NCBI GenBank assembly: GCA_016840465.1 | Contig: JAEOSH010000005.1 | Coordinates: forward strand, 50,736-82,735 | Reading direction: 5' to 3' | Length of the DNA: 32,000 nt | Source of the DNA: Candidatus Baldrarchaeum yapensis | GTDB lineage: Archaea > Asgardarchaeota > Baldrarchaeia > Baldrarchaeales > Baldrarchaeaceae | Part shown: positions 4,264 to 32,000 of the stretch, in pieces | Layout: each line of letters opens with the position of its first letter | How positions within the stretch are numbered: the stretch's first letter is position 1 | Notes under the pieces: generated by a model | The model's database searches: none | Told to the model about the DNA's origin: nothing | Seen by the model: the letters and a program-made list of their open reading frames with translations, nothing else | Position numbers and translations under genes: made by a program

Positions 4264-5841
4264 TCAAATGCCTAATTCTTGCCTTATTTTCTGCACAATT
4301 CTTCCTTCCCTTATAAGGTTCGATACGACCTCAAGATCTCGTGATAATGACCTATCGTCCTCCAATGCACTGACATGTCTTCTTATCTCTTCATAAGCTA
4401 TCTTTGTACCACTCCCTAATAGTTCCTTGCCTCCTCTCAGATCGATTCCCTGCGTTGCTGCTATCATTTCAAGAGCTATTATGTAGCGTGTGTTACTTAT
4501 TATTTGAGCAGTTCTTCGCGCTGAAACCAGCCCCATGCTAACAACGTCCTGATTTTCGGCATTAGTGGGTATGGACTTTATGCTTATCGGGCATGCAAGG
4601 CCCTGATTTTCAGCAACCAACGAAGTTGCTACGTACTGCACACCCATGAACCCACATCTAAGCCCCGGGTTTGATGAGACTAAGAATGGCGGTAAACCTC
4701 TATTTGTCATTTCATTCAAGAGAATAGCAAGTCGTCTTTCGGATAATAGGCCAACCTCCGTCGCGGCTATTGCTGCAAAATCCATGGCCATGGATATGTG
4801 TTGCCCATGAAAGTTTCCACCGTGGTACACCTTTTCGTTGTCTGCATCGATCAGTGGGTTGTCCGATGCTGAGTTCAGTTCTGTCTCCACAATGCTCCTT
4901 ACGAATTTTAGTGCATCAAGTGAGGCTCCTAGCACCTGCGGTGTACATCTGAGGCTATATACGTCTTGGAATTTCTCCTCCATCTTCTCGACTGATCCCT
5001 TTACTTCCTTTATGAAATCTTCGTACCTCCTGACGAGTTTACTTCCATCGAGGAGAGTTTTTATGTACCTTGCGATTTCCCTTTGTCCCTCATGAGGTCT
5101 GACATTATGTATGAAATCCTCAAACGGATCAATGAACCCCCTCATAGCCTCTATTGTTAATGCCGCAGCAATGGCCGCATTCTTTATTAACATCTCGAGG
5201 TCATAAACCACAAGCGCTGCGATTCCTGTCATTGCAGATGTTCCGTTGATCAGAGCAAGCCCTTCCTTATAGCTTAATTTTAGTGGCTTTAAATTCTCGT
5301 TTTTCATAGCTTCTGCTGCTTTTACTATTTTCCCACGATATTCGACAAACCCTTCTCCCATCATTGTTAGAGCCATATGCGCTAATTGCGTGAGGTCCCC
5401 ACTCGCTCCAACCGATCCTATCTCGGGAATTACTGGATGGATTTTCCTGTTAAGCATTTCAATTAAGAGTTTCAGGACCTCCGGCCTGACACCGGAATGC
5501 CCCATAGCAAGAACGTTGGCGCGTACAAGCATCATTGCTCTTACATATTCTGTGGGAAGAGGATTCCCCACTCCGGATGCGTGACTCCTTATTAAATTCT
5601 CTTGCAGAACTTCGGCATCCTCAGCCGGTATCACGCAGCTTATCATCGGTCCGAATCCTGTGGTTATTCCGTACACTATTTTCCCTTCATCAACGAATTT
5701 CCTAACAGTCTTCCGGCATTTCTCAACTCTCTTCAACGCCTCATCGGAAAGCATTACATTTGCGTGGTTCCTTGCAACTGCAACTACGCGCTCTATCGTT
5801 AAACTCTTACCATCCACTACCACGGCGCTCAATCCCATCAC
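4264..5841 (-). CDS. MIO-dependent aromatic amino-acid ammonia-lyase/aminomutase (HAL/PAL/TAL/TAM family), tyrosine-type signatures
   Basis: It has the MIO tripeptide in GSVGASGDL, plus VYGITTGFG, LIRSHASGVG, NGTS, QDVYSLRC.PQV, SDNP, GGNFHGQ, GVQY and NQDVVSMG. Confidence 0.95.
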   Translation of the reverse strand: MMGLSAVVVDGKSLTIERVVAVARNHANVMLSDEALKRVEKCRKTVRKFVDEGKIVYGITTGFGPMISCVIPAEDAEVLQENLIRSHASGVGNPLPTEYVRAMMLVRANVLAMGHSGVRPEVLKLLIEMLNRKIHPVIPEIGSVGASGDLTQLAHMALTMMGEGFVEYRGKIVKAAEAMKNENLKPLKLSYKEGLALINGTSAMTGIAALVVYDLEMLIKNAAIAAALTIEAMRGFIDPFEDFIHNVRPHEGQREIARYIKTLLDGSKLVRRYEDFIKEVKGSVEKMEEKFQDVYSLRCTPQVLGASLDALKFVRSIVETELNSASDNPLIDADNEKVYHGGNFHGQHISMAMDFAAIAATEVGLLSERRLAILLNEMTNRGLPPFLVSSNPGLRCGFMGVQYVATSLVAENQGLACPISIKSIPTNAENQDVVSMGLVSARRTAQIISNTRYIIALEMIAATQGIDLRGGKELLGSGTKIAYEEIRRHVSALEDDRSLSRDLEVVSNLIREGRIVQKIRQELGI

Positions 5842-7476: not shown

Positions 7477-7503
7477 CACTACTTGCTATGGAGAGTTGAT
7501 CAC

Positions 7504-9063
7504 ATGGTATTAGATGTTCATGAAATAACAAAAGCCGCTGAAAAAGACTACGAGAGAGCCTGGATAGAATATTCAGAAAAGATCCCAAGGGGATCTACTG
7601 GTTTTAAGTTGAAGAATAAAGCAAAGCGACATCCGGTTTTTGAAATCATACAGAAATTTAGGGAGATATTACTAGAGATGGGATTTGAGGAGATAATATT
7701 GCCAGTAATAGTTGAGGAGGGGATTGTTTACCGGGAGTATGGGCCCGAGGCTCCAGTGATTCTTGATAGAATTTTTTATCTGGCAACACTCCCGCGCCCG
7801 GACATAGGGATAAGTCGGGAAAAAGTTAATAAGATCAGGGAGATAGTGCCCGGGTTTGATAGGGAGGAGGAGTTAAAGAGAATATTCAGAGAATACAAGA
7901 GAGGGGGAATAGAGGCTGATGAGTTAATAGAGTATATGGTTAAGGATCTTGGAATACGGCAGGAACAAGCGACGAAGATAATAGATGAAGTTTTTCCGGA
8001 GTTGAAAGAGTTAAAACCTATTCCCACAAAGTTGACCTTAAGGAGCCATATGACGGCACTATGGTTTCCTGTGCTGGAAGCAATGCAGTATCGTGAACCC
8101 CTACCCATTCAACTCTTCACCATAGGAGAGAAGTTTAGAAGAGAGCAAAGACTCGACGAGACTCACCTATACTCCTCCTATACCGCGTCGTTGGTAATAA
8201 TGAATGACGAATTGGGTCTTGAAGATGGAAAAAATGTATGTCGCGAGATAGTCAATCGACTTGGCTTTTCGGAGGTAGAATTTAGACTCAAAGATGTTAC
8301 ATCGAAGTATTATGCCGCAGGAACAGAATTTGAGGTCTTTGTCAGGCATCCCAAAACGGGAGAATGGATAGAGATTGGAGATGGCGGAATGTATAGCCCC
8401 GTTTCTCTTGCAATGTTCAACATAGAGTATCCGGTTTTTAATGTCGGATTCGGAATAGAGAGAATTGCGATGATAATAACGGGAGAAACTGATGTCAGAA
8501 GGCTGGTGTATCCATACTTTTACACGGAACCTCAGTTCTCACCGGAAGATTTGGCATCTATGCTCTCATTTATAAAATCACCGAAAACCAGAGAGGGCGA
8601 GATGCTTGCAAACGCAATAGTGGATGCCGCAGTAAGGCATGCTGATGAAAAAAGTCCAGCTGAGGTAGTTGCATGGAGGGGGAGAATCTTGGGAAAAAGG
8701 GTGACAGTTACGATATGGGAGAGAGATCCTGGGGTCAAATTGCTGGGGCCCGCTGCACTTAATGAGGTATGGATTGTAAATGATACAATTATAGGAGTTC
8801 CGCCTTCACAAAGACCTGAGAATGGTTACTATACGGGAATAAGATATATAGATGGAATTGCTAAAAGAGCCGCCGCAGAGGCGGAAGAGATCGTAAGGAG
8901 AGGAGAAAAGGAGTTTTCCATGAGGGTAAGGATTGTCAGAGGACTTTCTGATATAAATTTAAAGTTGCAAAAGGCGGCATTACATTACATAACATCTAAG
9001 GGCAGTAAGATAGATATAAGAGGGCCTGTGTTCGTAGGAATAACCGTAAAAGTTGATGATTGA
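7504..9063 (+). CDS. sepS: O-phosphoseryl-tRNA(Cys) synthetase (SepRS)
   Basis: HPVFE.IQ.FRE..L.MGFEE, YGPEA..ILDR.FYLA.LPRP.IGIS, LTLRSHMT..WF, FRREQ..D..HL, W.EI...G.YSP.SL..., FNVGFGIER and a full-length C-terminal anticodon-binding region. ATG 7504 is preferred. Confidence 0.93.
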   Translation: MVLDVHEITKAAEKDYERAWIEYSEKIPRGSTGFKLKNKAKRHPVFEIIQKFREILLEMGFEEIILPVIVEEGIVYREYGPEAPVILDRIFYLATLPRPDIGISREKVNKIREIVPGFDREEELKRIFREYKRGGIEADELIEYMVKDLGIRQEQATKIIDEVFPELKELKPIPTKLTLRSHMTALWFPVLEAMQYREPLPIQLFTIGEKFRREQRLDETHLYSSYTASLVIMNDELGLEDGKNVCREIVNRLGFSEVEFRLKDVTSKYYAAGTEFEVFVRHPKTGEWIEIGDGGMYSPVSLAMFNIEYPVFNVGFGIERIAMIITGETDVRRLVYPYFYTEPQFSPEDLASMLSFIKSPKTREGEMLANAIVDAAVRHADEKSPAEVVAWRGRILGKRVTVTIWERDPGVKLLGPAALNEVWIVNDTIIGVPPSQRPENGYYTGIRYIDGIAKRAAAEAEEIVRRGEKEFSMRVRIVRGLSDINLKLQKAALHYITSKGSKIDIRGPVFVGITVKVDD

Positions 9064-17352: not shown

Positions 17353-18573
17353 TCATTTCTCCTTTCTGGCTTCTAACATTTCCATAAATGCATCTAACCG
17401 AACCTTAACTTGTGCATCAGAGTACGCCCGCTCGTCTGTGTGATCGGCTTCAATTATTAAACACGGAATATCGTATTCTTTAGAAAGAACTTTCTGTGCG
17501 GCAGGATGAAGCAGGGAGGTTGCCTTACATGACCTGCTTGAAAGCATTATTACGCCGTCGGCATCATATTCCTTCATTACCTTTACTATCCATTCTACTG
17601 TCCACTCACCTGGCAGGTTTATCGGGTTAAAAAGAGATTTGTACGCGAGAGACTCAAGAGGTTTTGAGGGATCTGGCTTATAAATCCCCCATGTTGCAGT
17701 ATATAGTTCATACACAAACACAGCACCATATTTCTCTTCAAGATAGTTGAATAGTCTTAGATTATGCCAATAGGGAATGCCGCTTAGCACAAGTCTGTAT
17801 TTTTCTTCATCGACGACTCCAATTCCTTCTTTGACTCTATTTTTGACCTCTTCATATAGCATCTTGTAATATTCTACGGCATCTCTTGCACCTGCAGATA
17901 CTACGTATGGAAACATAGCCGCGGACGCATCTGTAACTCCCATTGGACATGGTTTATTCTTTCTTAGATCTAAGGACTTATGCCACAGCTCCGCGGCCTT
18001 TCTTGATAGTTCCACGGAACTTCTAAGTCTGTTGATGTCCAGAGACTCTCCTGTTATTTTTTCTAACTCTTCAATCAACGATACAAGCTGATCCTTAACG
18101 TATTCTATATGATATTTTTCTATTTTATCGGTTATTCTTGGACAGTCCAAGATAAGTAGTGGTTTTTTGAGATAGTGAGACATCACTTGCCACCATTTTA
18201 GATAAATGGAACACACGTTCTTCGTAGACAATAAAAAGTCGGGTTTTTCCATTCCACCGAGTGGGGCCTTTCCACCAAGTAAAAATCCTATGACACATCG
18301 CGCGTAGGAGCACAAGTCCTGAAGATAACCATCCGCCTCCGATTTTCTGAACAATTCCATTGTTTCTTTCCTCACAGCACAAACACATGCGTAGTTTTCG
18401 GGAAAAAGTGGTTGAATGTCCATTGCATACAGTATTTCTATAGGTGGAGGTACTGCAGTGCACCAAGCCACCCATTTATTCCGCCTATGCGCTTCTATAG
18501 CCGAGAGATAATGTGCAATTACGAAGTTCGTGATTCTCCTTGCCGCCCTAAGGGACCTCCTCACTTTTTTCAT
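17353..18573 (-). CDS. 2-hydroxyacyl-CoA dehydratase alpha / benzoyl-CoA reductase BzdO-like subunit (HgdA/FldB family)
   Basis: FPENY (catalytic Glu position), cluster Cys in DLCSY, NVCS and RSCK, and IEADHTD.R......Q...R.DAF.EML. Confidence 0.9.
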   Translation of the reverse strand: MKKVRRSLRAARRITNFVIAHYLSAIEAHRRNKWVAWCTAVPPPIEILYAMDIQPLFPENYACVCAVRKETMELFRKSEADGYLQDLCSYARCVIGFLLGGKAPLGGMEKPDFLLSTKNVCSIYLKWWQVMSHYLKKPLLILDCPRITDKIEKYHIEYVKDQLVSLIEELEKITGESLDINRLRSSVELSRKAAELWHKSLDLRKNKPCPMGVTDASAAMFPYVVSAGARDAVEYYKMLYEEVKNRVKEGIGVVDEEKYRLVLSGIPYWHNLRLFNYLEEKYGAVFVYELYTATWGIYKPDPSKPLESLAYKSLFNPINLPGEWTVEWIVKVMKEYDADGVIMLSSRSCKATSLLHPAAQKVLSKEYDIPCLIIEADHTDERAYSDAQVKVRLDAFMEMLEARKEK

Positions 18574-18580
18574 GACGCTA

Positions 18581-19672
18581 TCACCTTAACATTTCTATGA
18601 ATGCCTCAACTCTATTTCTCAGAATTGCAGCAGAAAAGGGAAATTCGTATTCTAGAAGTAGTGAGGGAATGCCCTCTTCTTCTAGCATTCTCCGTAAGAT
18701 CGGATAATCAAAAAGATAGGGATCACAGAACTTCCTTATTAGGAAAATGACTCCTGAGGCATCAAACTCTTTTGCCAACTTCAGTATATACTCGGCGCGA
18801 TCCTCTACAGAGTGCCTATACGGCGATGGAGTCATGAGATAGTGTTCTGCTATACCAGCGAAGATGTCTTTTCTCACCGCTAGATCCTGTGAAAAGTGCC
18901 TCGATCCTATATCCATGTCATCGGCTACTATTAAGCCTCCGGATTCCTCTATAAGTTCTATGAGAGCAACATTCTCCACCATATGACCGGAAACTAGTAG
19001 TCTCACGCCCTCCTTTTTTGTCCCCCATTTCTCAATATTCCCTAATATTGAATTTAGCATGTCTATATGATGTTCGACGGGCATAAAAAATGCTGCAAGC
19101 ATAAGTTTAAAGAAATCAGTACCGCTAAAGGGAGGACTATTGGATTTTCTCATATTGTTCAATTTTCTTAACAACTTTCTTTGTTCATTGAACTTTGTTA
19201 TGGAATCCTTTAAGATTTCCTCGGAAGATTGTGATAATGAAAGTTCTTTAAGGAACTCCCATAATTTTATGATTTCTCCCTTGAAGTAATTCAAAGATTT
19301 GTCATCCTTTTTAGGTGGATAATGAAACAGATACAGTTTACGATTCGGATCCGTCAATTTGACAATATTGTATAATGACCACAATGAGTCACAGATATCT
19401 GGTATTATGAATGCCTTTACGAAGTCTAAATCCCCTGAAAGAAACTTTTGCAGCACCGAACGTGATAGTGAACACGCAAATGTGTGCATATAGGCGTCAG
19501 CCGCAGAGAAGTCTTCTGACATTATTATTAATGGGAATTGCTGCAAATTTGCGGCGTGTATCAGTTCTATGGGCACACCTACAGGGAAAAAAGCTACGAC
19601 GTTCCTTCCGCAACTCTGTGCTGTTTTTTTCACATATTGAATGGGATCATTAAGCAAATCATCGATATTCAT
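18581..19672 (-). CDS. 2-hydroxyacyl-CoA dehydratase beta / benzoyl-CoA reductase BzdN-like subunit (HgdB/FldC family)
   Basis: VP.ELIHAA, FACS, ICDS, G..IVADD...GSR, KFCDPY and R.EAFIEM. It ends 7 bp before the partner subunit. Confidence 0.9.
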   Translation of the reverse strand: MNIDDLLNDPIQYVKKTAQSCGRNVVAFFPVGVPIELIHAANLQQFPLIIMSEDFSAADAYMHTFACSLSRSVLQKFLSGDLDFVKAFIIPDICDSLWSLYNIVKLTDPNRKLYLFHYPPKKDDKSLNYFKGEIIKLWEFLKELSLSQSSEEILKDSITKFNEQRKLLRKLNNMRKSNSPPFSGTDFFKLMLAAFFMPVEHHIDMLNSILGNIEKWGTKKEGVRLLVSGHMVENVALIELIEESGGLIVADDMDIGSRHFSQDLAVRKDIFAGIAEHYLMTPSPYRHSVEDRAEYILKLAKEFDASGVIFLIRKFCDPYLFDYPILRRMLEEEGIPSLLLEYEFPFSAAILRNRVEAFIEMLR

Positions 19673-19899
19673 ATATCACGTACCCCGTTTTCGATCCAAT
19701 ACATCTTCGGAAGATGCACCATGCCGTACAATAATTATCGAGCGGTGATGCAATTTTAATGCTATGCTTTTCAGAGTATTTCCGACAAGACTCGCTACAT
19801 TCTTTTCATCGGAATCTCGAGGGAAACCATTCATGTTTTAAAGTCTTTTGACCATTAATGATTACAACGTTGAGTCAGCAATTCTCGGAGAGGGTTCTT

Positions 19900-21072
19900 A
19901 TGGCGCGTGTGTCCGTTGTACGGGTGAAGAATGATAACGTCGAGGCAGCTGTTAGAGAGGCCATAGAGATGGCTGGAGATTTTGATATAGGTTCTGGGGA
20001 GAAAATTCTAATAAAGCCCAATTTATGTTGCGATAAACCATCTGGTAGCGGTGTAGTTACGAACATGTCGGTAGTCGCGGCCGTTGTGAAAGTTGTTAGG
20101 GAAATGGGTGCAAAACCTCTAGTTGGAGATATACCAATCGTAGGATTCGATCCACAACACGTGTATGATGCCTTAGGCGTTAAGGAGATTGTTGAAAAGG
20201 CTGGTGGTGAATTTATAGACTTAAGTAAAGAGGAAAGGATCGTAATACAGATTCCGAATGCAAGAAAATTGCGCAGAGTGAAAATAGTGAAGACAACTTT
20301 TGAAGTCGATGGTATTATAAGTGTTCCGGTGTTAAAAACGCATTTCTTCACAGGAGTCACCCTTTCAATAAAGAATTTGAAGGGGTTGACCGATCAAGAT
20401 CAACGAACAAGGATCCACGTGTTGGGGCTTAATACTCCCATTGTTGATCTTCTGCAGGTTCTTAGAAATCAAATAAGGTATGTGATCATCGATGGAACTT
20501 ACGTTGCACGACAAATAAAGCCAAGTGGACCGTATTACGGACCAACGGAACCTAAAGACATAACGAAACTCGATTTGATAATTGCAGGAAGGGATCCTGT
20601 AGCTGTAGATGCGGTAGGAGCACAAATTATGGGCTTTAATCCTAAGGATATAGCAATGTTAAGGGAGGCCGCGGAAAGGGGGTTAGGTGAAATAGAAAAC
20701 ATAGAAATTGTTGGTGAGATGCCGGGTGCAGTTGGAAAGTTTGAAACCACACTTTTAGGGAAGATTATGAGGTTTCTAAACAAGTTTTGGACGTCAAGAA
20801 TCTTTAACCCATTGGTTCATCCATTAGCCAAGAAATTGTTTGGACCGGAGATTGTTGCATACAGACAAGTGATGAAGGAAATGGAAACCGGAAAGAAGGG
20901 AGAGGTCGTTCTCACGGGAGAGTGTGATGGCTGTGGTATTTGTGTGCGCTCCTGCAAGGTTGGAAACATAAAACTGGTGAACAATAAACCAGTAATAGGT
21001 GACAAATGCATTAAATGCTTCATATGCGTGGAGGCGTGTCCTAAAGGAGCGTTGTCAATAGTGGGACTTTAA
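19900..21072 (+). CDS. DUF362 domain protein with a C-terminal 2x[4Fe-4S] ferredoxin domain
   Basis: ILIKPN, VPVLKTH...VTLSIKNLKG, DPVA.D, CDGCGICVRSC and CIKCFICVEACP. ATG 19900 is preferred. Confidence 0.88.
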   Translation: MARVSVVRVKNDNVEAAVREAIEMAGDFDIGSGEKILIKPNLCCDKPSGSGVVTNMSVVAAVVKVVREMGAKPLVGDIPIVGFDPQHVYDALGVKEIVEKAGGEFIDLSKEERIVIQIPNARKLRRVKIVKTTFEVDGIISVPVLKTHFFTGVTLSIKNLKGLTDQDQRTRIHVLGLNTPIVDLLQVLRNQIRYVIIDGTYVARQIKPSGPYYGPTEPKDITKLDLIIAGRDPVAVDAVGAQIMGFNPKDIAMLREAAERGLGEIENIEIVGEMPGAVGKFETTLLGKIMRFLNKFWTSRIFNPLVHPLAKKLFGPEIVAYRQVMKEMETGKKGEVVLTGECDGCGICVRSCKVGNIKLVNNKPVIGDKCIKCFICVEACPKGALSIVGL

Positions 21073-23779: not shown

Positions 23780-25480
23780 TTATTCAGCACGTGCCTTGCT
23801 TCTGAACTGTTTTTCAAACAACTCCCTGATCCTAGTGATGGTGTCTGCCTCTTCCGGCCGTTTATCTTCTCTTATTCTCACGATCCTCGCGAATCTGAGG
23901 GCATATCCGGACTTGTATTTAGGAGATTTCTGTATTTCATCAAAAGCAACTTCAACAACTACCTCCGGCTTCACAAATACCGTTCTTCCTCGCTCTCCGA
24001 TTTTCAGTTCAAGCAAGCGTTTAGTCATGTGTTCGAATTCTTCATCTGTAAGCCCTTTGAACGTTTTTCCAACCACTAAAAACTCTCCAGAATTTTCATC
24101 TCGAGCGGCAAGGTAATAGTCGCTTAACCATTTATATCGTCTTCCATACCCCCAATCCGCAGCGACGATTACCAAATCCAAGGTATCCAAGGTCTCCTTT
24201 ATCTTTAACCATTTTTTACCGCGAATACCTGGAGTATAGTCACTATTTGGCTTCTTTGCCATCAAGCCTTCATGACCGGCAGATCTTGCCGCTTTGAAGA
24301 AATGTTCCGCTTCCTTAGAGTCGCTAGTTATAATCTGCGGAACAAGTTGTATATCTCCGGATATCTCATACAACTTTTCTCTTCTCTCCACATAAGGCAT
24401 ATCTATGAGTAAATTGCCATTTAAGTACAGGATATCGAAGAGATATAGCCTAACGGGGATTTCTTCTACCATCTCTTTCACATCTTTAACCCTACGAAAT
24501 CTTCTCATTAAGTGCTGAAATGGGAGGGGCTTCCCGTCGTTTCCGATAGCTATGACCTCACCTTCAAGAATAACTTCTCTCGCCTTTATGTTGTCTCTGA
24601 CCTGTGCAACGACGTCTGGAAGACTTAATGTAACGTCGGTTAACCTTCTACTAAAAATTTTCACCTCATTCTCCTTCTTATGTATTTGAACGCGCGCTCC
24701 ATCCAATTTCCACTCAAATGCCGTGCGTCCTCCATGGATCTTTAATGCTTCCTCAACGCTTTCTGCAGCCTGAGCAAGCATGGGCTCTATCGGATGAAAA
24801 AGCCTCATCTTTACCTCTTTAAGCGCCCTTATTCCGCCCTTTACGGCGATTTCGGCAACCTCACCTATATCACCAGTTAGCATATGTGCACGTTTAACTA
24901 ACTCTATTGGAGCATTTGATAGCAGGGCAAGCGCCTCTTCCACGATTCCTTCTGAGGCTCCGTGCCTCATTTCGCCCAATAAAATTTTCACTATGTACTT
25001 TGCTTCAAGCGGTTCGCACTTTTCAAGTAGCCCGCGCAGTAGTAGTTCCTTCTTCCGTTTAGATCCCTCACCCTTAACTTCTGATACTTCGTTGAAAATT
25101 TTGTAAACATCAAGTAACGTAATTTGCTGCTTTTGAGGCGCAAGAAGTGTTATCTGCTTGACTCCCTTTTTCTTTTCAAACAATATTTTTGTCATATCTC
25201 CAGGATCGCCGGTTTTGTTGAATGCATCCAATATATCTTTGGGTTTTGTACCAGTTATCTCCTTTATAACCTTTATGATCGTTCTCCATGAAATATCAAG
25301 AGTTTTGTGGCTCCATTCCGGAAATATTTTCCCCACTATCATTCTTGCGGCAATTCCCACGAGATCTGATGGTATCTTCTTGAAAAATGATGCAATTAAC
25401 GCAATCATACTTGACCTTTTGGTTGTCCGTTCTAAAGCTTCACAAAGTTCAACTAGGTCCCGAAAGGGAATGTCTCCCAT
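23780..25480 (-). CDS. lig: ATP-dependent DNA ligase (archaeal type with DBD, adenylation and OB domains)
   Basis: Motif I EWKLDG.R.Q.H, motif III ILEGE, IIIa LFDILY, IV EGLMAK, V WLKIK and VI ALRFARI..IR.DK. ATG 25480 has a GGTGA RBS. Confidence 0.96.
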   Translation of the reverse strand: MGDIPFRDLVELCEALERTTKRSSMIALIASFFKKIPSDLVGIAARMIVGKIFPEWSHKTLDISWRTIIKVIKEITGTKPKDILDAFNKTGDPGDMTKILFEKKKGVKQITLLAPQKQQITLLDVYKIFNEVSEVKGEGSKRKKELLLRGLLEKCEPLEAKYIVKILLGEMRHGASEGIVEEALALLSNAPIELVKRAHMLTGDIGEVAEIAVKGGIRALKEVKMRLFHPIEPMLAQAAESVEEALKIHGGRTAFEWKLDGARVQIHKKENEVKIFSRRLTDVTLSLPDVVAQVRDNIKAREVILEGEVIAIGNDGKPLPFQHLMRRFRRVKDVKEMVEEIPVRLYLFDILYLNGNLLIDMPYVERREKLYEISGDIQLVPQIITSDSKEAEHFFKAARSAGHEGLMAKKPNSDYTPGIRGKKWLKIKETLDTLDLVIVAADWGYGRRYKWLSDYYLAARDENSGEFLVVGKTFKGLTDEEFEHMTKRLLELKIGERGRTVFVKPEVVVEVAFDEIQKSPKYKSGYALRFARIVRIREDKRPEEADTITRIRELFEKQFRSKARAE

Positions 25481-25522
25481 AGGGTCACCATAATGGATTC
25501 TCGGTTTCACAAATTTAAGTAA

Positions 25523-25550
25523 GAGGATGATGACAGACATTACTGACCTC
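25523..25550 (+). other. Minimal box C/D (kink-turn/K-loop) hairpin motif in the fen-lig intergenic gap
   Basis: GAGG-AUGAUGA-CAGACAUUA-CUGA-CCUC has perfect C and D boxes closed by a 4-bp GAGG/CCUC stem. There is no C'/D' pair. Confidence 0.45.
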
Positions 25551-25554
25551 ACTA

Positions 25555-26583
25555 TTAACGTATAAAATCGAACAGTTTCTTTTGACCTGAGAAAACTTCT
25601 AACTTTTCGAGCCTTCTTATGGCGTTTTCGACGCGCTTTCTAGAAAAGTCCTTCTCATCGCATAGGAAAGATATTATTCCGTCCTTATCCGGCTTGTTCC
25701 ATTCTATCTGATAGTCATCCGTAACTTCAGGTTCCAAGAATATTTTCCTGACAGTGTTGTAGTCCTCATTTATTTTTATGACACCCCTTTTTACAGCGTT
25801 TTCTATTGTTCCGTACTTTCTAATAATCTCTAGCGCTCTTTTCGGGCCTATACCCTCGACACCCTCATTATAGTCCGTTCCCACTAATATTGCTATGTCT
25901 ATGAGTTGTTCCCTCGTTATTTTCAGCATAGACAGTAGTTCCATTAGGTCTATTATTTCTGGTTCCAGAGGTTTAACTATGCCCTTACTTGGCAGAAACT
26001 CAGTACCACTTATCGTGAGGTACCTTACCAGATAGTTTGTTCCATAGAGTAGCGAGTCCCAATCTCTGCTGCATACGGCAAATGCATCCCCTTTTCTGAC
26101 GATATATGCCGCCTGAGCCTCTGCATCTGACGGGGCTTGCACCCAAGGTATACCCATGAGGTCGAGGAGTTCCTTTGCTTCCTTTATCATCTCCGATGTG
26201 AGTCTACTTGTTTGTATTGCCTTCCTCCATGCTGTTGGGAGATCTCCACGAAATAACGCTTCTAGCCATTCACGCTCAGCCTTTTCTTTAAGTTTTTTGC
26301 GCTCATCTAATTCACGTAACTTAAGAGGATGAGGCTTTCCATCAAATACAAATATAGGAAAGATCCCATATTCTGTAAGTCTGGTTGTCCTATAAAAGAG
26401 TCCCATCAGGTGGCTTGTTGGTCTTCCCTTGGAGTCCGAAAAATATCTGCCATCAGGTTGTCTTATTAGTGCTAAAAATTGATATAATTCATTATTTGCA
26501 TCGAATGCTATCCTTCTTCCCGAAAAATACTCAAATGGTACTTTTTTCCGGTTAACAATTATTGGGGTTAGGTATACTCCCAT
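25555..26583 (-). CDS. Flap endonuclease 1 paralogue (second FEN1)
   Basis: MGV, IAFDA.N.LYQFL..IRQPDG, TSHL.GLFYRT, VFDG, APSDAEAQ, SRDWDSLLYG, ILVGTDYNEGVEGIGPK.AL and a C-terminal PIP-like QKKLFDF. Confidence 0.93.
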   Translation of the reverse strand: MGVYLTPIIVNRKKVPFEYFSGRRIAFDANNELYQFLALIRQPDGRYFSDSKGRPTSHLMGLFYRTTRLTEYGIFPIFVFDGKPHPLKLRELDERKKLKEKAEREWLEALFRGDLPTAWRKAIQTSRLTSEMIKEAKELLDLMGIPWVQAPSDAEAQAAYIVRKGDAFAVCSRDWDSLLYGTNYLVRYLTISGTEFLPSKGIVKPLEPEIIDLMELLSMLKITREQLIDIAILVGTDYNEGVEGIGPKRALEIIRKYGTIENAVKRGVIKINEDYNTVRKIFLEPEVTDDYQIEWNKPDKDGIISFLCDEKDFSRKRVENAIRRLEKLEVFSGQKKLFDFIR

Positions 26584-26660
26584 TTTACAGTTCACTCATA
26601 GGTCACTAAGGATAATGCTGATAAAAAGGATAAAAATTTGACTGAATGCCGCTGTATTGC

Positions 26661-28595
26661 TTATATCTTCAGGGCAACTTTAAATGCTGCAGATATGGCG
26701 TCTCTTGCTCTTCCAGGCGATATGCAATCGCCTACTGCATATACTTCCTTGAACTTTTTGGTTAACTGCTCGTATAGAGCCTTATTTGGAGCCGCCCCCA
26801 CAGCTATTACCACCGTGTCTGCGAGTATTTTCCTTTCCTGTCCCTCCTGTTCGACGAGAACACCGTCTTTCTCTATTGCCTTAGCCGTGGTTTTTGTTAG
26901 TATTTGAACACCTTTTGATCCTAGTCTCTTAAGTAACACCCATCTGACAGTCCTCTCAAGATCTCTACCTACTCGTGGAAGCATCTCTATAACCGTTACC
27001 TTTTTGCCCATTTCGGATAGATAATCGGCAGTTTCAAGACCTACGCCCCCACCTCCTATGACCACTACATTATCTCCGCACGAAACCTTACCTGCGAGAA
27101 CGTCGTATGCGTGGACCACATTTTCGAGGTCGATACCTGGTATATTTGGTATTATTGGTGTTGCGCCCGTTGCTACTATAATGACATCCGGATTGTGCTC
27201 TTCGACCACGTCAACGTTTGCATTCACCCCAAATTTTACATTAACGCCATATTTCTTCAGCATTGTTTCGTAAAATTCTATTACCTCCATCAGTTCGCCC
27301 TTATATGGTGGAACAGTGGCTAATCTGAACACACCACCCAGTTTATCCGACCTTTCAAGTAACGTGACATTATATCCTCTCATGGCCGCTGTTATTGCAG
27401 CCTCCATCCCCGCGGGCCCGCCACCTATTACCAGTACTTGTTTCTTTCTCTCGGCCTTCTTTATTTCATACTCGAGTTCCTTGCCTGCCCTTGGATTAAC
27501 AGTGCACTCCACGGCCTTTATCATAAATATCGACTCTAAGCAATGTCCACAAGCTATGCAAGGCCTTATTTCATTAAACCTTCCCTCATATGCCTTTTTA
27601 GCCCATTCAGGATCTGCAATTAACGCTCTGCCTATAGAAACGAAATCCGCCTTTCCTTCAGAGATTATTTTGCTTGCAAGTTGCGGGTACTTTATCCTAT
27701 TACTTGCGATTATGGGTATATCGACTATTTTCTTTAATTCTTCAGCATAGTAAACGAAGCCTCCGGGAGGTACTTCTCTTGTTATGAGGGGGCGTGGAGA
27801 TTCGTGCCACCCTGTAGTTACATTTATTGCATCAACACCCGCATCCTCCAATGCTTTTACTACCTTCTTTGTTTCATCAAACGTTGTTCCTCCTGGGAGA
27901 TAGTCTTCGGCGCTTATTCTTACTATCAGTGGATAGTCTTTGCCGATTGCGCTTTTTATCCTCTCAACGGTTTCAAGCAAAAAGCGCATACGATTTTCGA
28001 GTGGACCCCCGTACTCGTCCGTTCTTTTATTAGTGGCCGGAGATAAGAATTGATTAAAGATGTATCCAGCAGATGCACAAATTTCAACACCATCAAAACC
28101 AGCTTTTTTCGCTCTTTTGGCGGCTTCAGCAAAATAATTCTCAATTTCTATGATTTCTTCGACTGTTAATTCCTTTGGTGTCTCGCCTGTTAATTTTGAT
28201 GGTATAGGGGAGGGGGCTACGGGTTTTCTCTTTGTTATAATCGATGGGGCTAATCGACCCGGATGGAGGAGTTGTACGGTAACACGAGCACCTTTCCTCT
28301 TTATTTCTTCGACGAAATTCTTCCATCCAGGAATGAATTTGTCGTCATATAGTGCGGGCTGACCCGGATGGCTTCTATAGCGGGGATCGGGGCATACACC
28401 ACCGACTGCGATTAATCCAACATAGGCTTCGGCTCTTTCAGCGTAGAATCTTATCATCCTATCGCCAACGGACCCATCTGGTTCGGATAGTCCAACAAGC
28501 ATGGGAGCCATTATTATTCTGTTCTTCACTTCCATCTTACCTATTTTTCCAGGTTCGAATAGAGATTCGACCTCAGGTGGTGGTTTTATTCTCAA
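26661..28595 (-). CDS. NADH:flavin oxidoreductase, 2,4-dienoyl-CoA reductase (FadH)/enoate reductase-like
   Basis: OYE barrel (KNRIIMAPM, QLLHPGR, GFDGVEI...GY..NQFLSP.TN.RTDEYGG, GWHES), Fe-S motif CIACGHC...CTVNP, and two Rossmann motifs (GGGPAGMEAA, GGGGVGLE.A). Confidence 0.9.
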   Translation of the reverse strand: MRIKPPPEVESLFEPGKIGKMEVKNRIIMAPMLVGLSEPDGSVGDRMIRFYAERAEAYVGLIAVGGVCPDPRYRSHPGQPALYDDKFIPGWKNFVEEIKRKGARVTVQLLHPGRLAPSIITKRKPVAPSPIPSKLTGETPKELTVEEIIEIENYFAEAAKRAKKAGFDGVEICASAGYIFNQFLSPATNKRTDEYGGPLENRMRFLLETVERIKSAIGKDYPLIVRISAEDYLPGGTTFDETKKVVKALEDAGVDAINVTTGWHESPRPLITREVPPGGFVYYAEELKKIVDIPIIASNRIKYPQLASKIISEGKADFVSIGRALIADPEWAKKAYEGRFNEIRPCIACGHCLESIFMIKAVECTVNPRAGKELEYEIKKAERKKQVLVIGGGPAGMEAAITAAMRGYNVTLLERSDKLGGVFRLATVPPYKGELMEVIEFYETMLKKYGVNVKFGVNANVDVVEEHNPDVIIVATGATPIIPNIPGIDLENVVHAYDVLAGKVSCGDNVVVIGGGGVGLETADYLSEMGKKVTVIEMLPRVGRDLERTVRWVLLKRLGSKGVQILTKTTAKAIEKDGVLVEQEGQERKILADTVVIAVGAAPNKALYEQLTKKFKEVYAVGDCISPGRARDAISAAFKVALKI

Positions 28596-28693: not shown

Positions 28694-29878
28694 ATGGAAA
28701 AGTTTGTTTCGCAAGCAGCGAGGAGGACGAGGCTATCAGGTATAAGGGAGATTAGCGAGAAGGCAATGAGGATGAGAGATGTGATCAGACTAGAACTTGG
28801 CGAGCCTGATTTCAAGACGCCGGATAACATAATAGATGCAGCAACTGAGGCCATGAAAAAGGGTTATACACATTACACTTCGGTAATGGGTATTCCCGAA
28901 TTGAGAGAAGCGATTGCAGAGAAGCTTGAAAGAGAGAATGGTATAGAGGCGGATCCTGAAAGAGAGATCCTTGTGACATGCGGCGGATATCATGCGATAT
29001 TTGTATCTCTTGCTGCAGTTTTAAATCCAGGAGATGAGGTTATTGTTACAGACCCCTGCTGGTCCGCATATGTCAGTACCATAAGTTTTCTCGGCGCAAA
29101 ACCAGTGTATTGTCCCTTGGACGAGGATAAGGAGTTTGAACCCTCCCTTGATCTCATAGAGAACCGAATAACTGAAAAGACTAAGTTAATAATTATAAAT
29201 TCTCCTCAAAATCCGACAGGTGCCGTTTGGAGCAAAAGTATCCTAGAAGCTATCACTGAACTTGCGATGAAGAAGAATATACTTGTACTTTCGGATGAGG
29301 TCTACGAGAAACTAATATTTGATGGATATAAGCATTTTAGTCCCGCTTCTATTATTCCCGACGCAAAGGATTACGTCATATCGATATTTTCGTTCTCAAA
29401 GACCTATGCGATGACCGGGTGGAGGATAGGATACGTCGTGGCTAATGAAAAACTCATAGAGTACATGAAGAGAGTGTCCTTCATTACAATAGCATGTCCA
29501 AATGCATTCGTTCAATATGCAGCGATAGAGGCGTTAGGGGGATCACAGGATGCTGTCAATCGTATGATTAAGGAGTACCAGAAGAGGAGGGATATCATTT
29601 ATTCGGAAATTAGTAAAATTTCGGGGGTGAAGTGTTGCAAACCACACGGGACGTTCTATATATTTCCGAACTTTTCGGAGATAATGAGAGATTCTGTGAA
29701 GCTAACCTACTACTTGCTCGAAAATGCGAGAGTCGCGGTAGTACCAGGCGTCTCCTTTGGTCCAGAGGTTGGTGAGGGGCACATCAGAATAAGTTTCGCG
29801 ACCTCAACCGAGAATTTAAGAGAGGCTGCTAAGAGAATAAGAGAGGCTGTGGAAAACCTTCAAACTAGTGACGCTTGA
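28694..29878 (+). CDS. PLP-dependent class I/II aminotransferase (aspartate/aromatic type)
   Basis: [10 protein letters not shown]...[37 protein letters not shown] and IRISFA. Confidence 0.94.
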
Positions 29879-30905
29879 GCCACGCGTCAAGGCCCGCTTG
29901 GACTTTTACTTTTCTGGATGCCAATACCAATCTATCCAGCGCCTTTCTCACCCTATCCTCACTAAAGTCGAAACTTCCACATAAGAAGTCGACTATGCCT
30001 TCGATATCCGGCTCATGCCACTTTAATTCATAGTCATCGGTTACTTCAGGATTCAGGAACAATTCACGTATCTTCAGCGGATTTACCGGAAATTCTGCGG
30101 ATGGAAGATACTTTAATGCTTTTTCTAGGGATCCATATTTCTTTATTATTTCGAGCGCTCTTTTAGGCCCGATTCCCTTGACACCATCAGGATTGTAGTC
30201 TGTACCTATAAGGATGGCCATATCTATGAGTTGTTCCCTCGAAATCCCCAGAGAGGAAAGTACTTTCTCCAGTTCTATTATCTCCGGTTTTATTTCGACA
30301 TATATATTCTTTCCCGGAAGTTTTCTTTTACCAGTAATTGAAATGTTTCTGACAAGTCTCGGTGAGCCGAAGAGTAGGGAATCATAATCTTGACTTCCAC
30401 ATGCGAACACATGCCCCTTTTGCGCCATATATGCAGCTTGCGCTTCTCCTTCGGATGGGGCCTGGACCCAAGGGACACCCATGAGATTTAACAGTTCTTT
30501 TGCCTGATTTGCCATTTCTTCTTTTAGTGTTGCGGTCTGCTGAGCGTATTTTCTCGCAGCCTCGAGGTCTCCACGTTTTAACGCCTCTTCATACTTCTTA
30601 ATTGCCTCTTCTCTTATTTTTCTCCTTCGCTTTATTTCTGCCTCTTTCAGTTCAGGCGGTTTCCCGTCAAACACATAAACTGGCTTTATTCCTATCTCTA
30701 TGAGGTTGATTGTTCTATAGAAGAGCCCATTAAGGTGGCTTGTTATACGCCCTCGAGAGTCTTTAAGTGGACTACCATCTCTCAGCCTTATTATTGCGAG
30801 GAACTGATAGAGGGCGTTGTAAGCATCGAGAGCTATAACTTTTCCCCTTAATGTTTCGAGTTCTATTTCTTGCCCCTTTACGATATCTGTCAATTTGACA
30901 CCCAC
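29865..30905 (-). CDS. fen: Flap endonuclease 1 (canonical archaeal FEN1)
   Basis: [66 protein letters not shown] and a PIP box QAGLDAW. Confidence 0.96.
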
Positions 30906-30998: not shown

Positions 30999-32000
30999 TA
31001 GTACTTCTGAAACTTTCTGAGAAATGAACATTTTTGGTCTATCCATCCATTCACGTCACCTTCCACCCTGCGGCGAAACGCGCACCGGCGGGCGACCGAA
31101 ATACGGTATGGCGGGCACAATCCTAAGCAGTGTCATGCAAACCCCCAAACACCAGCCGGGGGCGGCCCGCATCTGCCGCCCACTCGAAGAAGAGCAAACC
31201 GAGCGCTTCAAGAAAACACGTATAGCTCGTCGGGGCCGAATCGCATCGCGAAATCAGGTAAACGTATAAAAGGTAAATGACCGCGGAAACAAGTAACAAA
31301 AACCATCTAAGCGCAACGCTGCGCGAGCACGTCCGCGCCCTCCGCACCTTCACCACCCGATTGCACGTCTCAATGCCCACCTCCGCCAGTACTCCAAAGC
31401 ATCGCCCAATGGCATGCCACGGCACACAACCACAATCCGCTTCTCCCCGCGCCGGTAAACAATGAGATCGACGCTTATCTGCCTCCTCCCGCCGCTCGCG
31501 CTCACAACGTACGGAACAACGTGTGGACCGTCGCCGCTCAGACCCTCCAGACCCCTCTTTATGCCCGCCGTCCTCCTGGCGGCGATCGCAAACGGGATGT
31601 TCCTTCTCGCGAGAACCTCCATGACCTTCACCGAGAAAAAGCCACAATCCATGTAGACTCCCTCGACCTCGAGCCCCAGCCTCTCGATGTCACGAAGCAC
31701 CGCCTCCACGGCGTCGGCGCGGCTGTCGAACATGGAGATGGGGCTTATGGAGAGTGGGATCTTCCGGGGGCCGTCGATGGCGGCCGCCACGACGTACCTG
31801 TGCACGTAGCACTTCTTGGCGGGGGAGTAGTGGACCCACTCGTCGCGTGTGCCGAAGTAGGGAACTTCGGTTGTGTCTATCGCGACCAATACCCTCCTGC
31901 GGCGCAGCACTCCGGCGGCGATCTCCCCGAGGATCTCGTTGAGACTCTCGGAGTCGCGCATTCCTATTTTCCTCAGCTGGAAGGCCACCGAGTCGGGATG
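30999..32000 (-). mobile_element. ISH3-family (IS4-like) insertion sequence, running off the window
   Basis: This is a GC-rich segment encoding a DDE transposase. A possible terminus TAGTACTTCTGAAAC at about 30999 is reminiscent of ISH3-type ends (tentative). Confidence 0.75.
31123..32000 (-). pseudogene. ISH3-type DDE transposase with a single frameshift at about 31376-31378, 5' partial
   Basis: Frame 1 reads VAIDTTEVPYFG...VYMDCGFFS...EYWRRW. The other frame continues GIETCNRVVK.RRARTCSRS...R.F...SAVIY. One missing G in TGGGC would join them as RRWGIET. Confidence 0.85.

Follow-up and report, generated by a model that had tools for sequence, protein, structure and literature searches.

A gene named as histidine ammonia-lyase in the Asgard archaeon Candidatus Baldrarchaeum yapensis is not hutH and may encode a tyrosine-type ammonia-lyase of an unmodelled, mostly archaeal subfamily

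The gene on the minus strand at positions 4264-5841 of a 32,000-nucleotide stretch of Candidatus Baldrarchaeum yapensis DNA (contig JAEOSH010000005.1; the whole stretch is referred to as the window) encodes an enzyme of the superfamily that uses a 4-methylideneimidazole-5-one (MIO) electrophile, and the question raised by this locus is whether its product degrades histidine, as its automatic name would have it, or acts on another amino acid. A preliminary description of the sequence had predicted that annotation pipelines would call the gene histidine ammonia-lyase (HAL), and this is so: its best equivalog is TIGR01225 hutH (592.7 bits), and NCBI names close relatives histidine ammonia-lyase. 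The same description held that the enzyme is not HutH and resembles tyrosine ammonia-lyases (TAL) and tyrosine 2,3-aminomutases (TAM), a view that class signature, clade, genome content and the gene context of relatives uphold, although most of the motifs first put forward for it do not. There is a strong case that the query is not HutH, since a residue essential in HAL is absent, the class signature is non-HAL, the protein is not in the HutH clade and a hut pathway is missing from the genome. The reading that we favour, and whose chances we put as even, is that it would be an uncharacterised tyrosine-type ammonia-lyase from a subfamily without a profile of its own.

All motifs named in the preliminary description are present in the query: LIRSHASG (Ser86-His87), GASGDL, NFHGQ (343-347), GVQYVATSLVAEN (Tyr403) and NAENQDVVSMG (Gln431). 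As references we used HutH proteins whose function is anchored by complete hut operons (Peptoclostridium acidaminophilum, Haloferax volcanii and Klebsiella), an SgcC4-like TAM from an enediyne-type cluster with SgcC1-, SgcC5-, SgcC- and SgcJ-like neighbours, a TAL adjoining the gene for photoactive yellow protein (PYP) and its ligase, and the FlxA TALs of Flavobacterium and Chryseobacterium (887-889 bits on NF053541). Because the genuine HutH of P. acidaminophilum, encoded in a hutP-hutH-hutU-ftcD-hutI operon, carries the RSH-type Ser-His pair, NFHGQ and QY alike, these three are not diagnostic, and they were dropped as evidence for a tyrosine enzyme, leaving one of four motif arguments; the characterised Thermoplasma HAL (PDB 7tqr) likewise has Ser-His (RSH) and QY. 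The argument that remains concerns the glutamate of HAL, correctly described as missing: at the position of Pseudomonas putida Glu414 the query has Gln431, versus glutamate in 204/204 HAL-class sequences of a 277-sequence alignment, a set which includes every hut-operon HutH and 52 sampled Asgard paralogues. In GkHAL, the Geobacillus enzyme, the E411D change leaves no activity, and P. putida mutants with the equivalent active-site changes are slowed 1,000 to 20,930-fold (PMC11432326). Judged by these alignments, all that is diagnostic in the original set is the loss of the HAL glutamate in NQDVVSMG, taken with the residues around it.

Alignment columns were also ranked by how well they separate the 204 Glu-type sequences from 59 Ser-His Gln-type sequences, and the best-separating positions were 431, 400, 427, 340, 430, 406, 433 and 202. 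At 202, 340, 400, 406, 427, 430, 431 and 433 the query has S, H, G, T, N, N, Q and V, respectively. The SgcC4-like TAM has the same eight residues and the FlxA TALs have seven of them (they differ at 433), whereas hut-operon HutH has Q, S, I, A, S, Q, E and H. Over the top 40 discriminating positions the query sides with the Gln-type enzymes at 25 and with HAL at 8, all of these 8 being weak; Gly400, for instance, is found in 97% of Gln-type enzymes, and HAL has Ile, Thr or Leu there. Position 65 is Glu in 15/15 TAM-like sequences, while Pro is common to the query, the FlxA TALs and the archaeal class (the corresponding SgTAM position 71 is Glu in the wild type and Ala in the 3kdy mutant), and position 399 is Met in the query and HAL versus Ala or Glu in TAM-like enzymes; Tyr403 aligns with Tyr415 of SgTAM, the aminomutase of Streptomyces globisporus. 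The class to which the query belongs is mostly archaeal, and supplies all top database hits (P0003-P0023, 48-54% identity). FlxA/FjTAL (NF053541), the flexirubin TAL of Flavobacteriia and a tyrosine-specific lyase with 42% identity to the query, shares with it Ser-His, Pro65, Gly400, Asn427 and Asn430-Gln431, but has Gln399 and Phe403 in place of Met399 and Tyr403, and the query is without pigment-cluster context. The classical His-Leu TALs (RsTAL, 2o6y; PYP-linked TAL), which frequently adjoin an aryl-CoA ligase gene, have Gln at 431 and MIO chemistry in common with the query, but are 35-38% identical to it and carry a His-Leu or Tyr-His dyad and Leu, Val or Ile at 403, as opposed to Ser-His and Tyr403.

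With regard to the genome, the statement that the window contains no urocanase or other hut gene was confirmed and could be widened: urocanase (PF01175) was found neither in the window nor anywhere in the source genome (2.27 Mb, 96% complete, with one MIO gene), and there were zero matches to hutI (TIGR01224) above cut-off in that genome. MIO genes are present in 228/301 Asgard genomes; the paralogues sampled (the 29 best and 23 more) are all Glu-type, and urocanase co-occurs with the MIO gene in 53 of 57 other Asgard genomes (G001-G100), often a few kb apart; in the four genomes from the query's own order, both the MIO gene and urocanase are absent. A degenerate DNA pattern for NQD[IV]VSMG was found in only one of 400 Asgard genomes, namely the query's own. 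As the Asgard paralogues are Glu-type and urocanase-linked and the motif is confined to this one genome, the query gene is not the Asgard HutH orthologue, and its origin probably lies in another archaeal lineage; no compositional sign of recent transfer was found, the GC content at third codon positions being 0.44 for the gene versus a genome mean of 0.505 +/- 0.086. Many Asgard genomes also contain a second Glu-type MIO paralogue (L136-L138 in genomes G126, G003 and G171, and L139-L148), which has Asn-His for Ser-His and the motif AAADQEDFVSM, and is often divergent from canonical HAL, adjoining hutI or hutU.

Both phylogenetic trees (FastTree on 277 sequences, IQ-TREE on 82) contain a single HutH clade (support 0.965 and 100/97, respectively), to which all the HutH references and the Asgard HALs belong but the query does not; in the IQ-TREE tree the query groups with the TAM clade (98/90) and FlxA-like sequences among 28 Gln-type sequences (83/94). 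Structure and sequence comparisons with the PDB both have SgTAM as the top match, Foldseek with 2ohy (TM 0.95, root-mean-square deviation 1.6, versus TM 0.88-0.89 for HALs) and phmmer with 424 bits (versus 393 for 7tqr and 341 for P. putida HAL). In the profile searches the query reached 538.1 bits with the aminomutase profile TIGR03832 (cut-off 501; 943.5 for a true SgcC4-like TAM), and 516.6 bits with the FlxA profile, which is below its cut-off of 700, while true HutH proteins have 658-700 bits with TIGR01225. The query and four members of its class pass the hutH (581-611 bits) and TAM (536-569 bits) cut-offs alike, whereas true HutH falls below the TAM cut-off and true TAM below the hutH cut-off (NCBIfam). 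The scores would make this class a family lying unmodelled between the hutH and TAM profiles, which accounts for its automatic HAL name.

The gene itself looks like that of an intact working enzyme, given its open reading frame (ORF), its catalytic residues and a confident structural model. The ORF is open throughout with zero internal stops and gives 525 aa from a GTG at 5841, but the identical database protein (P0002) has 524 aa and begins at an ATG one codon downstream (5836-5838), which is the more likely start. Pfam Lyase_aromatic (PF00221) matches residues 14-487 with 645 bits, covering positions 1-465 of the 466 in the profile, and this full-length match, the ASG tripeptide, the Tyr loop and the YSLR carboxylate site place the query in the MIO superfamily. 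The general MIO set is intact (Ala146-Ser147-Gly148, Tyr57, Asn199, Gln292, Tyr295, Arg298 and Phe344; Table 1), and the alignment-based AlphaFold (AF2) model has a pLDDT of 92.4. The importance of the inner-loop tyrosine is known from GkHAL, where the Y52F mutant, at the position equivalent to Tyr57, is inactive (PMC11432326).

Table 1. Position of the ammonia-lyase gene and of its key residues in the window
Feature	Position	Strand	Basis
MIO-dependent ammonia-lyase gene	4264..5841	-	ORF and translation, PF00221, identical database protein, AF2 model
Codons Ala146-Ser147-Gly148 (predicted to cyclise to the MIO electrophile)	5398..5406	-	GSVGASGDL invariant in family alignment
Tyr57, inner-loop catalytic base (HAL Tyr53, SgTAM Tyr63)	5671..5673	-	SgTAM alignment; invariant
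Pro65, at the SgTAM Glu71 position	5647..5649	-	Alignment to SgTAM and subclass comparison
Ser86-His87; His equivalent to HAL His83 and SgTAM His93	5581..5586	-	Common to HutH, SgTAM and FlxA TAL; not diagnostic
Tyr295...Arg298 (YSLR; HAL Tyr280/Arg283), carboxylate binding	4948..4959	-	Invariant columns
Met399-Gly400-Val-Gln-Tyr403, substrate-pocket wall	4633..4647	-	Class column comparison
Asn430-Gln431-Asp-Val-Val-Ser-Met-Gly	4531..4554	-	Gln431 (4549-4551) in place of HAL Glu414

On the favoured reading, the product would be a functional MIO enzyme from the Gln-type (SgTAM/FlxA-like) branch that releases ammonia from an aromatic amino acid, and the most likely reaction would be the conversion of L-tyrosine to trans-p-coumarate and ammonium. 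By homology, the MIO electrophile formed from the cyclised Ala146-Ser147-Gly148 would capture the substrate amine, Tyr57 of the inner loop would remove the beta-proton, and Arg298 and Asn199 would hold the carboxylate; the para-hydroxyl would be hydrogen-bonded by His87 and Tyr403, as by His93 and Tyr415 in SgTAM, with Gln431 replacing the glutamate that HAL needs for the imidazole. Tyrosine is proposed as substrate with moderate confidence because the two lineages of Ser-His Gln-type enzymes that have been characterised (SgTAM and FjTAL/FlxA) act on tyrosine, FjTAL/FlxA having almost no activity on Phe, and because the phenol-binding His and Tyr are kept. The preliminary description had left open a choice between TAL and an SgcC4-type aminomutase, and here the lyase half is favoured, since a mutase is made less likely by Pro65, by the tree, in which the query is not in the TAM clade, and by the locus, which lacks a natural-product context. 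In related archaea the product would probably be handed to a PaaK-type aryl-CoA ligase and to acyl-CoA redox enzymes. For the source genome, participation in amino-acid fermentation or in releasing ammonia can only be guessed at.

The query gene is solitary, flanked by a small Hsp20-like gene on one side and a divergent gene for 8-oxoguanine glycosylase on the other. For its relatives the neighbourhoods contain ligase and acyl-CoA-type genes: in P0003 and P0004 a FIST gene is followed by a PaaK-type ligase gene overlapping the MIO gene, and then by an aldehyde dehydrogenase gene; in P0007 and P0017 there is a divergent PaaK-type ligase gene with 3-hydroxyacyl-CoA dehydrogenase, CoA-transferase and acyl-CoA dehydrogenase genes; and in P0009, P0010, L154, L162 and L168 an adjoining pair of FAD-oxidase and CCG iron-sulfur genes is found with acyl-CoA dehydrogenase, with or without electron-transfer flavoprotein (ETF), CoA-transferase, PaaK-type ligases and ADP-forming acyl-CoA synthetase. 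Within the same-signature class, 9/13 loci with usable flanks carry such genes, in three arrangements, a count in which the query's own gene is among the four without them and several loci are from related organisms. Neither hutU nor hutI was found near any Gln-type locus (0/14 GTDB loci, 0/8 relatives looked up and 0/80 metagenome loci), whereas hutU is located within 8 kb at 32/66 of the Glu-type loci that served as control, these being canonical HALs returned by the genome scan, which had a generic MIO motif as one of its two patterns. Natural AMP-binding::MIO fusions (a 1057 aa protein and a 2535-aa megaenzyme) and a 924 aa ThiF::MIO fusion were also found (P0157, P0126 and P0122), and their domain composition would link MIO and adenylating enzymes in the Rosetta-stone sense. 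The metagenome loci (L151-L230) include a separate large class with NANNQD[IV]VSMG, the classical TAL His-Leu dyad and Leu or Val at 403, which was drawn in by the DNA pattern and was separated by residue signature ahead of counting; such His-Leu TAL-like genes are common in soil and peat metagenomes, often abutting 4CL- or PaaK-type ligase genes.

These neighbourhoods allow a wider proposal, which we regard as doubtful though worth stating, that the mostly archaeal subfamily would catalyse the first step of an anaerobic pathway, so far undescribed, for using tyrosine or some other aromatic amino acid. Its members, annotated everywhere as HutH, would be recognised by the signature Ser-His/Pro65/Met-Gly399-400/Tyr403/Gln431, and would deaminate the amino acid non-oxidatively to an aryl-acrylate. 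Activation of this product by a PaaK-type ligase or a CoA-transferase would be followed by its reduction or beta-oxidation by enzymes of the acyl-CoA dehydrogenase (ACAD)/ETF type, with ATP obtained via ADP-forming acyl-CoA synthetase. Clostridia use a transaminase and 2-hydroxyacyl-CoA dehydratase for this purpose, and the proposed route would offer a second way. Horizontal transfer would account for the Asgard copy, since none of the other genomes among the 400 from Asgard archaea has one. The source genome has, on contig C52, a PaaK-like ligase sharing 67.5% identity with the one next to the P0017 MIO gene; it adjoins transporters and is unlinked to the lyase, and as a partner for the lyase it is suggestive only. 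An AMP-binding/ACAD/ETF cluster on contig 15 of the source genome is likewise unlinked to the lyase.

Several observations weigh against a tyrosine lyase. The best hidden Markov model is that of hutH, with a score above its cut-off of 539.15, and identity is slightly higher to true HutH (48.7%) and Asgard HAL (47.6%) than to TAM (44.1%) or FlxA TAL (42%). In the IQ-TREE tree the Gln-type backbone is poorly supported, and a tree with the query forced next to the HutH clade was not rejected by the approximately unbiased (AU) test (p = 0.33), so that the tree argues against HutH membership without proving distance from HutH. Met399 is HAL-like (Ala in SgTAM, Gln in FlxA) and may make the pocket tighter than in the known tyrosine enzymes, and both His87 and Tyr403 are present in many HALs too. 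Finally, no ligase or other partner gene was found next to the query gene.

The best-surviving rival explanation is an MIO lyase or mutase that acts on something other than tyrosine or histidine: Phe, DOPA, a substituted tyrosine or a novel aryl or heteroaryl alanine, for example. The combination of Pro65, Met399-Gly400, Tyr403 and Gln431 exactly matches no characterised enzyme, no curated model covers the class, whose scores fall between those of hutH and TAM, and the ligases beside the relatives are members of the PaaK superfamily that lie below every curated cut-off, their third-best family being the flexirubin acyl-CoA ligase FlxY. We nevertheless consider another substrate rather unlikely, as relatives with a Phe or classical-TAL signature have lost His87 or Tyr403 (SL, HL and FL dyads; Leu, Val or Ile at 403), while the query retains both phenol-binding residues.

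A second possibility is an atypical HAL working without Glu414, which would release ammonia or feed urocanate to an enzyme other than HutU, for example urocanate reductase. HutH (TIGR01225; P. putida 1b8f, Thermoplasma acidophilum 7tqr, Geobacillus kaustophilus) has the same fold and MIO chemistry as the query at 41-49% identity, and shares Tyr57, His87, Asn199, Gln292, Tyr295, Arg298 and Phe344 with it. The top profiles are hutH and PRK09367, both above cut-off, overall identity among reference enzymes is highest to HALs, many HALs also have His87, Met399 and Tyr403, the sister placement to the HAL clade stands unrejected in the AU test, and position 431 toggles between Gln and Glu in the neighbouring grade (P0056, P0058 and P0061). 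Set against these are the replacement of a glutamate that is universal in the HAL class, and for which even a Glu-to-Asp change abolishes activity, seven further class positions that are non-HAL, the position outside the HutH clade, and a genome without hutU or hutI, the Gln-type loci examined never being near hut genes; on this balance an atypical HAL appears improbable.

A tyrosine 2,3-aminomutase of the SgcC4/CmdF type, making beta-tyrosine, we think improbable: the query passes the TIGR03832 cut-off, has SgTAM (SgcC4; 2ohy, 2rjr; about 43-44% identity) as top PDB match in sequence and structure, shares all eight class residues, as well as His87 and Tyr403, with SgcC4-like TAM, and has Ser-His, NFHGQ, Gly400, Tyr403, Thr406, Asn427 and Asn430-Gln431-Asp-Val-Val-Ser-Met-Gly in common with SgTAM, but it scores far below a true TAM on that profile (538.1 versus 943.5 bits), has Pro65 and Met399 where SgTAM has Glu71 and Ala (Glu in 15/15 TAM-like sequences at the former position, Ala or Glu at the latter), lies outside the TAM clade (98/90), and comes from an archaeal host; neither its own locus nor those of same-class relatives show a nonribosomal peptide synthetase, condensation-domain or enediyne context, unlike L014 and L086. 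MIO mutases have lyase activity too, which makes the lyase/mutase distinction one of degree.

Elsewhere in the window there are further genes of interest. At 7483-9063 (+) an O-phosphoseryl-tRNA synthetase (SepRS) gene is found (TIGR00470, 549.9 bits versus a cut-off of 380.65), which on this profile match implies that the source Asgard genome would have tRNA-dependent cysteine synthesis; SepRS is best known from methanogens and Archaeoglobus. Two adjacent genes for HGD-D family subunits at 17353-19672 (-), with 19858-21072 (+), are all below curated cut-offs; the pair resembles 2-hydroxyacyl-CoA dehydratase, benzoyl-CoA reductase and double-cubane reductase, a divergent DUF362 and 2x[4Fe-4S] gene adjoins it, and no activator ATPase for it was seen in the annotated stretch. 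At 26661-28595 (-), 21 kb from the lyase, a 644-aa Fe-S flavoenzyme combining old yellow enzyme (OYE) and pyridine-nucleotide-disulfide oxidoreductase domains belongs to the 2-enoate reductase/FadH/BaiCD/bilirubin-reductase family (best score 551 bits, below all cut-offs), and from its family could reduce an aryl-acrylate. A window pathway joining the lyase to the HGD-D pair, this OYE/FadH-type flavoenzyme, an aminotransferase and a 2-oxoacid:ferredoxin oxidoreductase was considered and is not claimed, as these candidate partners are 11-24 kb off, among DNA-repair and housekeeping genes, and below every curated cut-off. Two FEN1/XPG-family nuclease paralogues, both of 346 aa and within 5 kb of each other, are encoded at 25555-26595 (-) and 29865-30905 (-), the first directly adjoining an ATP-dependent DNA ligase gene (23780-25552). 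Finally, a DDE transposase gene or fragment is located at the window edge (31350-31988, -), where other ORFs overlap it and GC rises to 0.51.

The result, which stays within a well-known enzyme family and is not a new kind of system, corrects an annotation and points to a route that archaea may have for aromatic amino acids. A subfamily that passes the hutH and TAM cut-offs alike receives the HAL name in archaeal metagenome-assembled genomes, and histidine catabolism deduced from that name would be wrong for genomes containing it. We know of no characterised example of an archaeal tyrosine-type MIO enzyme. The class mixes features of SgTAM, FlxA TAL and HAL, and could show how HAL and aromatic specificities arose from each other, with the Gln/Glu switch at position 431 as the obvious position at which to test the origin of specificity. 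The recurrent linkage to aryl-CoA ligases and acyl-CoA redox genes also suggests that there may be an unrecognised form of aromatic amino-acid fermentation in anaerobic archaea.

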